From IMG/VR virus record IMGVR_UViG_2910705042_000001: a stretch of DNA of 48,201 bases; one strand, 5' to 3'. The notes under the pieces were generated by a model. It saw nothing but the letters and a program-made list of their open reading frames with translations. It was not told the DNA's origin and did no database searches. Origin of the DNA: a virus. The first letter of the stretch is position 1. Every line of letters begins with the position of its first letter. A program made the translations under genes and the position numbers. Positions 2,851-45,385 of this stretch are shown here, in pieces.

Positions 2851-3651
2851 TCATGCGGCGATGGGCACGCGTTGATGATGGTCGCGGAACCACTTCGACG
2901 TGTAGCAGGGTCGGCATAGACCTTTCGCATAGTGCTTGTCTCCACACTGGCTACACACTTTGGCCGGACGATAGACAACCTCATGAGGGTGTTCTCGATG
3001 GTACTTGCACAGGCCCGTCTCGTTGGAAACGCGAGGGCATCCTGGTATCGAGCATGGTGTTCGTTCGGCGACGAGGGTCACGAGAGGATCGCCCGTCGTC
3101 TTGAGTCGGTGGTAATGCTTGTTGCACAGTCCGCGTCCATGGAGTTTCTGTCCACATTCAGGAACCGAGCAGACGACACCTTGAGGACGTCTCGTTCCAA
3201 CTGGCATGTCCATGGGGCGCTGGTAGACCTCCCGGTAGCGATGACGGCTGCACCACAGCTTTGTCTCTTTCGGGGTGCGATGGCATCCGGGATAGATGCA
3301 CTCGCGTGGGGCTGGCGGTCGGGACGTGTCGACCTCCGGCTGAATGATCGTGTCTACCGGTTCGGGCAGGTGGGTGATCCAGTGGGCGAGTCTGTCGTCC
3401 CCGTGGCGTGTAGATGCGAGGCGTGCCCCGGCTTGGGTCAACACGGTGACTGTGCGTCCGCGTCCGGTGATGGTAGCAATCGTCACCTTCCGTACTCGCC
3501 GCTCACCCAGTCCGGTGACGAGAGTCTGAATGTTGCGAATGTGAAGCTCACGGGCAATGTCTGCGGCGATGAACAGGCGTGATCCGTGTTGGACGACCGT
3601 GCGCACAACGGCGTTGTTGTAGCTGTGGACATAGACAGTTTCGTAAGTCAT
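2851..3651 (-). CDS. Bro-N (antirepressor-like) domain protein with four Cys/His zinc-finger-like repeats
   Basis: VRTVVQHGSRLFIAADIARELHIRN is Bro-N-like. Repeats: CIYPGC..CSRH, CSVPEC..CNKH, CSIPGC..CKYH, CSQC..CRPC. Start placed at ATG 3651 by the octamer 9 nt upstream. Confidence 0.65.
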   Translation of the reverse strand: MTYETVYVHSYNNAVVRTVVQHGSRLFIAADIARELHIRNIQTLVTGLGERRVRKVTIATITGRGRTVTVLTQAGARLASTRHGDDRLAHWITHLPEPVDTIIQPEVDTSRPPAPRECIYPGCHRTPKETKLWCSRHRYREVYQRPMDMPVGTRRPQGVVCSVPECGQKLHGRGLCNKHYHRLKTTGDPLVTLVAERTPCSIPGCPRVSNETGLCKYHREHPHEVVYRPAKVCSQCGDKHYAKGLCRPCYTSKWFRDHHQRVPIAA

Positions 3652-38544: not shown

Positions 38545-38746
38545 GTGATTTACGGCTACATCAGAGTCAACACCGCGCAGCAAGCTAGGGAAGGAACCTC
38601 GCTCGCCTCCCAACGGTAGGCACTGGCTGAAGCGGGTGCGGAGCGTTTGTGCAAGGACGCCGGTCAGCCGGGAGCAAAGAAGAGCCGCCCGGCCTTGGAC
38701 GATCTGCTCAACCATCTCCGCCTTGGCGACGCGGTGGTCGTCACCA
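38545..38746 (+). pseudogene. Serine resolvase N-terminal remnant
   Basis: MIYGYIRVNT..Q...SL..QR*ALAEAG...SRPALDDLLNHLRLGDAVVVT; in-frame TAG at 38617-38619, then truncated. Confidence 0.75.
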
Positions 38747-38983
38747 CATTCATGACGCCGGTTGGTAGGGGTGTTGTCATGAGCTTGTCTCAGACGTGGT
38801 ATGACCTCGTTTCTCGGACAAATGATGGCGGAGTTCCCCGTACGGTTGCTGAAGTGCGCGCAGCGCTCGATCGGGTGGTTTCGATAGAGGAGAAGCGGAA
38901 GCTTGTTGCCTCGAAGAAGAGGGTGCCACTGTCTGTTGCGAAGAGTCTGTCGTCTGTGTCGGCATTTTGACGAAGACTGTCGA

Positions 38984-41364: not shown

Positions 41365-42721
41365 GGGAGTGTCCGTTTAACGGTGGATGTGGTCTGGCGC
41401 ATTTTTAGTTGATTCGGCCTTCGAAGGTGATCGCGAAGGCGTTCAGGGCGGGTTTCCACCTGGTTACCCATCGTGCCCGTCCCCGCCCGGTGGGGTCAAG
41501 GGAGCGGGTCACCAAGTACAGGCATTTCATCGCGGCCTGCTCATTGGGGAAGTGGCCTCTGGCTCGTACTGCTCGCCGGAAGCGGGCGTTCAGGGATTCG
41601 ATCGCATTCGTTGAGCAGATCACTCGGCGGATCTCTACGTCGTAGTCCAGGAACGGGATGAACTGGTCCCAGGCCCGCTCCCAGAGTCCCCGAATCGCCG
41701 GATACTGGGCGTCCCACTTCGTAGCGAACTCCTCGAACCGTTCCCTAGCTGCGGCCTCAGTGGGGGCCGTATAGACCGGGCGCAGATCCCGGGCGATCTG
41801 ATCCCAGTACTTCCGGGACGCGAACTTGAACGTGTTACGGACCAAATGGATGATGCACGTCTGCACCGTCGCGAGCTCCCACGTGGTCGTGATCGCCTCG
41901 GGCAGGCCTTTCAACCCATCACAGACCACAATGCAGACATCGTCGACACCCCGGTTCTTGATCTCGGTCAAGACGCCGAGCCAGTACTTCGCACCCTCAC
42001 CACCATCACCGGCCCAGATACCCAGAATGTCGCGTTCCCCGCTGGTGGTGACGCCGATAGCGGCGTAGAACGGCCGGTTGGTGACCTGGCCGTCACGGAC
42101 CTTCACCACGATCGCGTCGATGAACACCACTGGGTACACGCGATCCAGGGGACGGCCTGCCCACTCTGTCATCTGGTCGATGACCTTGTCGGTGATCTTC
42201 GAGATCGTGTCCTTCGACACCCTAGCCCCATACACTTCGGCGAAGTGCGCTGAGACTTCTCCGGTGGTCAGGCCCCGGGCGGTCAAGAACAGCACGATCT
42301 GGTCGATCCCGTCCAGCCTGCGCTGCCGTTTGCGCACGATCTGCGGGTCGAACGAGCCGTCCCGATCCCGGGGCACCTCGATCTCGACCGGCCCGATCTC
42401 GGTGATCACCGTCTTGGCTCTGGTCCCGTTACGCGCATTCACGTTGTCGGTGACCTAGTGTTTCTCGTAGCCGAGGTGTTCGGTCATCTCCGCATCCAGC
42501 GCGGTCTCGATGACCTGTCTGGTCAGCCCGGCCAGCAGGCCTCCCGGCCCGACCAGGCTCACGCCTTGTTCCTTGGCCTGCGCGAGCAGCTGCTCGGCAA
42601 GCTCTCTTTGATCAATGATCTGTCCCGTCACGGGATCAATCATTTCGGTCGATCGTGAATCTGTCACTGCCTTACCTTTCAGTCAGGCCAGACCCACATC
42701 CACCGTTTACCGGACAGTCCC
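41365..42721 (-). mobile_element. IS256-family insertion sequence
   Basis: ~35-bp imperfect terminal IRs GGGAGTGTCCGTTTAACGGTGGATGTGG / GGGACTGTCCGGTAAACGGTGGATGTGG; no flanking direct repeat. Confidence 0.9.
41405..42667 (-). pseudogene. IS256 transposase with one in-frame TAG
   Basis: HLGYEKH*VTDNVNARNG (TAG at 42455-42457); PRDR, DAI, DGLKG, QTCIIH, TNAIES. Confidence 0.9.
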
Positions 42722-43195: not shown

Positions 43196-43429
43196 GCCAA
43201 CCGATCCTTCACGGCTGCTGCGACGTTGCGACAGAAAATCACCTCAGTCGCCGCTCGTAATGGGGCCTCCGTCACGAAAGTGAGCTCCGCATATATCTCG
43301 ACCATTCACACCGCGTGCGCCACATTGAACACCCGGAAGAAAGGCGAGATGAAAGTAATGTGTCGTACTTGCAAAACCAAGTACGACGTCGACGACAACG
43401 CCCTTGATGTCATCGAGCTGCGAAGCTGA
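43196..43429 (+). pseudogene. C-terminal remnant of a Cas12m (type V-M/V-U1)-like effector
   Basis: ANRSFTAAATLRQKITSVAARNGASVTKVSSAYISTIHTAC..N...VMCRTCKTKYDVDDNA: HxxC/CxxC zinc finger plus RuvC-III, spaced as in the Cas12m C-terminus (compared from memory); upstream in-frame stop at 43151. Confidence 0.6.
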
Positions 43430-43474
43430 CAGCATGGTAAGTACGACCACGGATGAATCCGGGGGCTTTTAGGC

Positions 43475-43654
43475 TCAGGTAGCGCCGTCAAGAACCGGGG
43501 TTCTCTCGGGTCGGCTTACACCATCAACACCTACCTGGTTTACTTCTGCCAGGGCCAGAATCGTCTGGGCTGCGTTCACATCACGGTCTGCGGTGTAACC
43601 GCATTCGCACCTGAAAGTTCGTTCGGACAGGCTCAGGCGGGTCTTGGCTATCAT
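43475..43654 (-). pseudogene. tnpB: TnpB C-terminal remnant
   Basis: Manual translation: AKTRLSLSERTFRCECGYTADRDVNAAQTILALAE...GAT* (59 aa, below the ORF-track cutoff). Confidence 0.85.
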
Positions 43655-43744
43655 TTCCGCTACTATGACTATGGGACAACGGACTATGAGTCATATGCGT
43701 CCTGAATCACACCACCATTCTCATAAACACAAGAAAGACACCTC

Positions 43745-44257
43745 ATGCGCACTCACCCGACTTTGCTGCAGAGCAGCACAAAACTAGCCGCAATATTAGC
43801 TGCCCTGCCACTTGCCTTTTCGCTGGCCGCTTGCTCGGCGGGTACCTCCAGTCCCTCTGACGATTATTCAAAGGGTTACAAGGACGGCTTAGCCGCGGCA
43901 GCAACTTCCAGTGGGGTACCAGAAGTTGGCACAACGCCGGTTGCCTCTGATAAGCACATCGGAGTGGTACCGAACTTGGTCGGGCAGAATGTTGCCCAGG
44001 CTGCAACCTGGAGTTTGAATGAAGATTTCAGAGTGATGGTTGGAGCGGGCAACTTGTTGGTCCGGATTATTACGCCCGACGGAACACTAGTCACTGAGGA
44101 GAATGCCGCCAACTACAAGATCGTATCTCAGGATCCTGCCGCGGGCACGTCTTTCAAAATGACCTATATGCTCGATGAGAACGGCAAAGAATATGGCAAT
44201 CTCGTCGATAGCCAAGGCATCTGGGAAGTGGTTGTCAACGCCGAACCGATTGACTAA
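43745..44257 (+). CDS. Lipoprotein with PASTA-like domain
   Basis: Lipobox LAAC; VVPNLVGQNVAQA...KIVSQDPAAG; visibly lower GC than the backbone. Confidence 0.75.
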   Translation: MRTHPTLLQSSTKLAAILAALPLAFSLAACSAGTSSPSDDYSKGYKDGLAAAATSSGVPEVGTTPVASDKHIGVVPNLVGQNVAQAATWSLNEDFRVMVGAGNLLVRIITPDGTLVTEENAANYKIVSQDPAAGTSFKMTYMLDENGKEYGNLVDSQGIWEVVVNAEPID

Positions 44258-44530
44258 ATGGACGTGTGCGAGGAACGAGACGCGCCCATTGAAGAACTCG
44301 AAGTTATGCCCGACCACGTACATCTGCTTGTCACATGTGACCCTCAGTACGGGATTCACCGGCTTGTCAAGCAGATTAAGGGCAGGTCGTCACGAATGCT
44401 CAGGGAAGAGTTTCCGCACGTCAAGTCCAGGTTGCCATCCCTGTGGACGAACTCGTACTTTGTTGCCACGGTTGGCGGGGCAACGCTCGCTGTTGTCAAG
44501 CGGTACATCGAAGCGCAGAAAGACGTGTAG
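44258..44530 (+). pseudogene. tnpA: IS200-type Y1 transposase, 5'-truncated
   Basis: MPDHVHLL (HUH), IKGRSSR, LWTNSYFVATVG, RYIEAQK; N-terminal part missing. Confidence 0.85.
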
Positions 44531-44586
44531 CCGCCCTTTCCTCCCCACGGCTAAAGCCGAGGGTTTCTCGGGCGGTATCCGATGAA

Positions 44587-44652
44587 TGTGCCCGATTTTC
44601 ATGACATTACACACTGACATATCATTGATATATCAAGAAAAAATGCTTTACC
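44587..44652 (+). promoter_or_regulatory. AT-rich CRISPR leader candidate
   Basis: AT-rich stretch next to the first, consensus repeat; repeats degenerate towards the far end. Confidence 0.5.
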
Positions 44653-45385
44653 CCTGTAGTCCCAGTGGAGAGGGAACATATCTCCAACATTCCTCGTTGG
44701 AGGCCTCCGGTCGATCCCATGTAGTCCCAGTGGAGAGGGATCATATCTCCAACGGCAACCGCTCGGTACCTGCGGGACTTCCCTGTAGTCCCAGTGGAGA
44801 GGGATCATATCTCCAACTGCTGCGAAGAGCACTTCGGTAGCCCTATAGTCCCAGTGGAGAGGGAACATATCTCCAACTGACCTCCAACAGGAGATGGAGA
44901 GCATCGGCGGCTCGTCCCTGTAGTCCCAGTGGAGAGGGAACATATCTCCAACTGAGTTCCAGCATTACGACGATCAGCCGCCTGTAGTCCCAGTGGAGAG
45001 GGAACATATCTCCAACTGAGTTCCAGCATTACGACGATCAGCCGCCTGTAGTCCCAGTGGAGAGGGAACATATCTCCAACTGCTGACGATCTTCGCCGCT
45101 TTCGCGCACCTGTAGTCCCAGTGGAGAGGGAACATATCTCCAACTGCACATCACTCAGCCCGCCCCTGTAGTCCCAGTGGAGAGGGATCGTATCTCCAAC
45201 TGAACCACGACAACCTGACGGGCAAGGGCATGTCACCCCAGTGGAGAGGGAACATATCTCCAACGTTGAATCCATTGCTACTTCTCCTGTTCCTTGTCAC
45301 CCCAGTGGAGGGGGAACATATCTCCAACTCAGTTGGAGGTTTCCAGCCGCTTGTCATCCCAGTGGAGAGGGATCGTATCTCCAAC
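44653..45385 (+). CRISPR. CRISPR array: 12 repeats (36 bp) and 11 spacers, type V-M-like repeat
   Basis: Consensus CCTGTAGTCCCAGTGGAGAGGGAACATATCTCCAAC at 44653, 44718, 44782, 44842, 44917, 44981, 45045, 45109, 45165, 45229, 45293, 45350. Spacers 29, 28, 24, 39, 28, 28, 28, 20, 28, 28, 21 nt; spacers 5 and 6 identical. Confidence 0.95.

Follow-up and report, generated by a model that had tools for sequence, protein, structure and literature searches.

The locus described here raises the question of why a CRISPR array stands with no intact cas gene beside it, and to which CRISPR type it belongs. It lies in a 48,201-nt stretch of DNA (the window; IMG/VR record IMGVR_UViG_2910705042_000001) contained in a complete, one-contig genome of 2.66 Mb, and the preliminary description had proposed that the array, together with a short coding fragment ahead of it, represents a decayed type V-M locus. 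Two features are central:

43202-43429, + strand: 3′ remnant of cas12m, a pseudogene, covering residues 548-623 (end of the RuvC-II region, HCCC zinc finger and RuvC-III Asp)
44653-45385, + strand: type V-M CRISPR array of 12 repeats of 36 nt and 11 spacers; the same repeat stands behind intact cas12m in L013 and L014

The remnant comprises the last 76 residues of the protein, in frame on the + strand, with its stop at 43429 and in the orientation of the array. The preliminary description had given frame, stop and orientation correctly and had let the fragment begin at 43196; the cas-derived DNA begins at 43202, and 43196-43201 is foreign. The remnant matched the Pfam profile Cas12f1-like_TNB (E 6e-6) and scored 20-28 bits against NCBIfam TnpB profiles whose cut-offs are 100-425, and its best matches in the PDB were Cas12m. 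Since it scores weakly against TnpB-type profiles, the fragment alone cannot settle its identity. A search for longer proteins matching the remnant found P0001 and P0002, both of 623 aa. Identity of the remnant to P0001, encoded in L013, is 97.9% in DNA and 96% in protein, and to P0002 80%. The P0001 gene, from contig JANPXT010068174.1 of GCA_034286655.1, is followed after 93 bp, and the P0002 gene in L014 after 113 bp, by the same 36-nt repeat as in the window. At full length P0001 matched GoCas12m (8PM4, E 3.5e-86) and MmCas12m2 (8HHL, E 2.7e-79), and its structural model (pLDDT 89) has a complete 620-aa Cas12m fold including the long REC2 helices, with Foldseek TM scores of 0.79 to GoCas12m and 0.75 to MmCas12m2 versus 0.34-0.41 to TnpB and Cas12f. 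In addition, the equivalents of the crRNA-contacting residues H12, R245, H269 and R270 are all present in P0001, and the four residues of the HCCC zinc finger in the TNB domain (H584/C587/C602/C605, P0001 numbering) all fall inside the window remnant. The identity to P0001, the adjacency of its gene to the repeat, and its Cas12m match and fold indicate that the remnant is residues 548-623 of a Cas12m and that the array is its cognate, as had been proposed. No cas1, cas2 or cas4 was called in L013-L017 or L080-L084, several of which are short contigs, and neither P0001 nor its alignment had a match in viral contigs or GenBank phages.

The recovery of intact loci and the reading of their RuvC residues, which the preliminary description had recommended, placed the protein within Cas12m. 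The P0001 triad H324/D520/D612 aligns with H317/D485/D579 of MmCas12m2, of which the window holds the third residue only. The MmCas12m2 H-D-D triad coordinates a single magnesium ion without cutting (PMC10442227), and the GoCas12m triad is H322/D497/D590 (PMC11013384); since the RuvC-III Asp is part of the triad in both proteins, its presence in the remnant is normal for Cas12m. Of the 118 homologues that include RuvC-III, 110 have this Asp; DxNA is the commonest form of the motif, with 63 occurrences, 47 of them among the 92 homologues having His at RuvC-I. A tree was built from 60 homologues, in which P0001 and P0002 grouped with P0003-P0008, P0010 and P0153 on a long stem (support 1.0); this clade nests among HDD proteins and apart from the D-E-D group. 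The tree was midpoint-rooted and contained neither a TnpB outgroup nor MmCas12m and GoCas12m, so that its rooting is provisional and it is supporting evidence, the residues being decisive. Judged by these residues, the protein is a canonical Cas12m with a predicted inactive-type H-D-D triad, rather than a form linking Cas12m to its transposon ancestor.

The array is the single copy of its repeat in the complete genome. The 36-nt repeat was found neither in 100 related genomes nor among viral and metagenome contigs, and no CRISPR repeat family in Rfam matched it. The preliminary description had read in it a 6-bp stem with a possible CCC/GGG pseudoknot, and this was borne out by covariation across ten repeats from related loci: the two-helix layout (3 bp and 6 bp) is paired in 98.9% of cells, compensatory changes occur in seven of nine pairs, the covariation score was reached by none of 500 shuffles, and pairing dropped to 30-49% in slid controls, with the reservation that the structure was picked from the same ten sequences, which biases these values in its favour. 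In the repeats beside related cas12m genes the layout is kept and the letters differ. A single repeat taken alone folds no better than shuffles (z -0.26). The 6-bp helix stops two bases short of the 3′ end, with G.A closing as in the MmCas12m2 scaffold, and both helices are intact in all 12 window repeats. Outside the array, four solitary repeat-shaped elements, of the scattered kind described for phage Cas12m, were found versus 0-1 in shuffles, one of them within the island that carries the window (below), and none resembles the repeat in sequence.

Spacers in the array range from 20 to 39 nt with a mode of 28, and show internal deletions and one duplication: spacers 3, 8 and 11 are shortened, spacers 5 and 6 are identical, and spacer 4 (44878-44916, 39 nt), which consists of 4 nt, the last 7 bases of the repeat and a normal 28-nt spacer, is an internal deletion product. 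Spacers 3-9 (44818-45228) each begin with TG (6 of 11 distinct starts, P ~4e-5), a bias absent from the spacers of L013, L014, L016 and L017 and from the type II-C arrays of the host family. The first and last spacers (44689-44717 and 45329-45349) both contain, in reverse complement, the final 7 bases of the repeat (P ~2e-4, post hoc) and could fold back onto the preceding repeat.

Several features of the arrays in related loci were also recorded. In L013 the fourth repeat runs into the middle of a topoisomerase-like gene (2765-2889; PHROG 6247), which has a 79% match in the island at 958.6 kb. In L015 repeat-shaped elements lie directly behind a tRNA-Leu gene (3211-3630), two of them separated by a sequence resembling a tRNA T-arm, and lone repeat-shaped copies stand before the cas12m start and 5.7 kb downstream (11254). 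The cas12m gene of a Micropruina MAG (L022, 7953-9830) appears frameshifted after about 400 codons and its 13-repeat array is retained. A long hairpin stands between the cas12m stop and the array in L014 (2320-2385), L016 (2533-2590) and L017 (4797-4860); these hairpins are unrelated in sequence, and the recurring element is probably a terminator or processing site.

Comparison of the window with L013 and with the rest of the genome revealed how the locus was broken:

41365-42721, - strand: IS256-family element with inverted ends; 99.9% copies elsewhere in the genome
42722-43212, - strand: copy of the 3′ tail of a host gene for a 1440-aa surface protein and of the sequence downstream of it, 95.9% identical over ~490 bp to genome positions 2392850-2393337
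43202-43212: 11-bp microhomology join between surface-protein tail and cas12m, from comparison with six chromosomal copies and L013
43437-44581, - strand: IS605-type derivative, missing at the empty site in L013; end hairpin z -3.4, TTCAT beside the left end
43475-43654, - strand: 3′ part of the IS605 tnpB, not to be confused with the cas12m remnant (Pfam PF07282, E 3e-7; NCBIfam guided_TnpB)
43745-44257, + strand: PASTA-domain lipoprotein-like passenger gene (Pfam PASTA, E 0.0013, under the curated cut-off)
44258-44530, + strand: 3′ remnant of tnpA (Y1 transposase; Pfam Y1_Tnp, E 2.8e-30, model positions 34-121)
44582-44652, + strand: right arm of the hairpin and AT-rich leader, near-identical to L013
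45404-46741, + strand: IS3-family element, 18 bp past the last repeat, with a 99.9% copy elsewhere and an ALIL frameshift signal

The absence of an intact cas gene had already been noted; for cas12m it holds for the whole genome: by tblastn, residues 548-623 are present and residues 1-547 have no trace anywhere, so that 88% of the gene is missing. The changes are given here in no set order. The first 547 codons were replaced by host chromosomal DNA at the 11-bp microhomology near the IS256 element, the surface-protein tail copy occupying the place of the 5′ part of cas12m; five further paralogue tails match this copy, and the join differs from the donor at one position, where the window has the cas allele. 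The IS256 element abuts the foreign segment without a target-site duplication, its two flanks being different. Since it does so at the far end of the surface-protein tail copy, the sequence is suggestive of a rearrangement linked to the IS in this host lineage. A 3′ tail of about 830 bp, 95-98% identical, is common to at least six large genes for surface proteins (genome 2325-2490 kb), which suggests module swapping or gene conversion.

The IS605 derivative (1145 bp) inserted into the hairpin between gene and array and thereby split the two, with loss of ~30 bp of the left arm of the hairpin; the corresponding hairpin of L013 is intact (20 bp, z -10). The derivative keeps both ends and the 3′ (omegaRNA) region of tnpB, its centre being replaced by the PASTA-like passenger, and it has no second copy in the genome and none in 150 family genomes. 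When it is removed, the cas12m stop lies 78 bp from repeat 1 (compare the 93 and 113 bp of L013 and L014), in agreement with the distance under 100 bp given in the preliminary description. Deletions and one duplication within the array and the IS3 element behind it are the remaining damage. A promoter-like match in the leader (44596-44625) is weak and within chance. Cas1, other cas12m pieces, the alpha-helical lobe of Cas9 and cas9 were all absent from the complete genome. Since there is no effector, cas1 or cas9, the system is dead here, and we infer that the array can neither act nor grow in this genome.

The carrier of the locus was delimited in the complete genome:

Genome 912.2-1054.3 kb: island of ~142 kb containing the whole window, with a tyrosine-integrase gene beside the tmRNA gene and ~47-bp direct repeats

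The att-like direct repeat was found at 912.2 kb and 1054.2 kb, and 40 kb of the island tested against three congeners was absent from them apart from IS-type sequence. The island encodes a VirB4-like AAA_10 ATPase, an SLT/NlpC/M23 hydrolase, a second DnaE and a sortase, together with an SNF2 helicase, restriction systems including one of type III, products of genes resembling those for arsenic resistance, an antigen I/II-like adhesin and an OLD-like nuclease. The gene of this nuclease is adjoined by a broken serine resolvase gene (38548-38970, internal TAG). Hits to relaxase PF03432 and coupling protein PF12696 lay outside the island only; since neither of these two Pfam families was found in it, the ICE label rests on the integrase, the att repeat, the VirB4-like ATPase and the hydrolase. 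As read from its sequence, the island is an integrated, ICE-like element. It has homologues of genes that neighbour related cas12m genes, namely YdjM, GmrSD_C, sortase and methylase, and other such neighbours look phage-like. The idea, raised by PHROG hits, that the close relatives are phage-borne was weakened, as the ICE-like island has neighbour genes in common with L080, L081 and L083; phage carriers are possible for L015 and L017. V-M systems are enriched on plasmids, present in prophages and devoid of adaptation genes (PMC11656645, PMC10691335), and a mobile island is therefore an expected setting for the locus.

No perfect protospacer was found for any spacer, so that candidate targets are proposed with reserve and no PAM is derived. 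Two spacers gave recurrent matches:

45081-45108, + strand: spacer 7, like the coding strand of serine resolvase genes
45201-45228, + strand: spacer 9, like the coding strand of MobA/VirD2 relaxase genes, just past the His motif

Spacer 7 matched an Arthrobacter plasmid resolvase at 26/28 positions, a Rhodococcus plasmid at 25/28 and the viral contig L074 at 26/28, all at one conserved motif. Spacer 9 agreed at 24/28 positions with relaxase genes from two related genomes, which encode the same 8-residue peptide there; one of the proteins has Pfam Relaxase (E 1e-12). With 2-4 mismatches these matches are individually weak (best E 0.05); since they recur at the same motif in independent records, the candidate targets of spacers 7 and 9 are likely to be mobile-element genes, which fits the silencing of competing elements by DNA binding. 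Targeting of start codons was rejected for both spacers, whose matches lie at internal codons near residues 106 and 131. Seed matches of spacer 9 in four large viral contigs (23/28, all mismatches at the 3′ end), 10 of 11 viral matches of spacer 7 and the phage BLAST matches were judged to be chance. Spacers 2 and 5 had no viral match. No spacer of at least 28 nt matched the genome with fewer than 6 mismatches, and the genome's own relaxase and resolvases have at least 10 mismatches to the spacers.

Taken together, we put at about 93% the probability that the locus is what is left of an ordinary CRISPR-Cas12m module of subtype V-M, now dead, on an ICE-like element of ~142 kb whose integration site is the tmRNA gene. 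In its intact form, as in L013, one 623-aa H-D-D Cas12m would take crRNAs from the downstream array by way of the pseudoknot repeat. By analogy with the characterised orthologues, it would work without a tracrRNA and would bind PAM-flanked DNA without cleavage, and such binding may block transcription or replication of competing plasmids or ICEs that bear resolvases and relaxases.

The rival readings concern the nature of the fragment and the present use of the array. There is next to no chance that the fragment comes from the TnpB of some ordinary IS and that the array, an orphan of type II-C or some other type, stands beside it by accident. The fragment on its own matches TnpB-type profiles only, a real tnpB remnant lies 45 bp away, and the host family's type II-C arrays show a 36+28 period as well, with repeat ends that are alike; yet the TnpB profile scores are far under the cut-offs, the II-C repeats are other sequences, the genome has no cas9, and the occurrence of the intact gene with the identical repeat in L013 and L014 refutes the reading. 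The preliminary description had held against its own proposal a grouping of the fragment with IS-associated TnpB and identical repeats beside cas9 or another type; what was found is a remnant 96% identical to a full-length Cas12m, and repeats adjoined by intact cas12m. The remnant does resemble IS200/IS605 TnpB and Cas12f in its C-terminal zinc finger, its RuvC-III DxNA and its weak profile matches. The full-length relative departs from them: P0001 has ~10% identity to TnpB and Cas12f besides the low TM scores, with His at RuvC-I and Asp at RuvC-II in place of Asp and Glu, and unlike TnpB, a D-E-D protein of ~400 aa with IS ends and an omegaRNA, it has 623 aa and a CRISPR array, and no IS ends surround the gene in L013 or L014. 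The preliminary description had further suggested that DxNA might mark a divergent lineage between TnpB and Cas12m. Descent of the remnant from such an intermediate, retaining TnpB-like catalytic features, is highly improbable and this part of the description is not upheld. All members of the subclade carry DxNA, whereas the residues behind the Asp are others in MmCas12m2 and GoCas12m, and the subclade has a long stem and is ~33% identical to these two proteins; against this stand the RuvC-I His and RuvC-II Asp of the 96% identical relative, the frequency of DxNA among homologues, including those that have the RuvC-I His, the position of the clade among HDD proteins and the complete Cas12m fold.

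It is also unlikely, if less so than these, that the array is still used, being transcribed from its leader or an IS end to give crRNAs that arm an incoming related Cas12m or act as decoys. The intact helices of all 12 repeats, the promoter-like site in the leader and the existence in nature of a 96% identical intact system agree with such use. On the other hand, a promoter match as good as this is expected by chance, the array has suffered deletions and IS insertions on both sides, and with 98% DNA identity to L013 the locus seems to have decayed recently, so that selection is not needed to explain intact repeats.

With GoCas12m (8PM4; PMC11013384) and MmCas12m2 (8HHL/8HIO; PMC10442227) the system shares a protein of ~620 aa, the fold, the H-D-D triad, the HCCC finger, a 36-nt repeat with 6-bp and 3-bp helices, an array directly downstream and the lack of adaptation genes; P0001 differs from them in its 32-33% identity, in forming its own subclade with insertions, and in its 28-nt spacers. 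V-M and type IV-A systems on plasmids and prophages have been connected with competition between elements (PMC11656645), and phage Cas12m systems have been described (bioRxiv 10.64898/2026.09.14.751636). The present locus is like these in its mobile carrier, the absence of cas1 and cas2 and its mobile-element-like spacers, and unlike the plasmid, prophage and phage V-M systems in that it is broken and sits on an ICE-like island integrated in the chromosome. Arrays of the host-family type II-C (Actinomyces-type Cas9) offer a further likeness, with a 36-nt repeat, 28-nt spacers, a 64-nt period, and repeats that, in the cas orientation, open with C-x-x-G and close with CCAAC or CCAGC; the eight family II-C repeats nevertheless differ in internal sequence, lack the V-M pseudoknot, are linked to cas9 and are absent from this genome. 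Type II-C cas9 occurs in ~15% of the host family. The array period is 64 nt in the window, L013, L016 and L017, 63-64 in L019, and 70-71 in the more distant L022.

The locus explains the orphan array and shows how a CRISPR module on a mobile element died, through a microhomology join and three IS insertions; it does not bridge TnpB and Cas12m. P0001 and P0002, together with some eight relatives, might be a source of new compact DNA-binding tools that use other PAMs. As a tentative proposal, whose chances we consider well below even, they may constitute an uncharacterised Cas12m subclade on large actinobacterial mobile elements whose repeat ends and 28-nt spacers are tuned to borrow the II-C Cas1-Cas2 of the host in trans; our literature search found no paper on borrowed II-C adaptation for V-M arrays. 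If this were true, the TG bias at the beginning of spacers would have been left by this route of acquisition, or would reflect an unusual PAM, and the borrowing would answer how V-M arrays without adaptation genes grow. The 36+28 arrays of the subclade provide a testable handle on which Cas1-Cas2 feeds V-M arrays.
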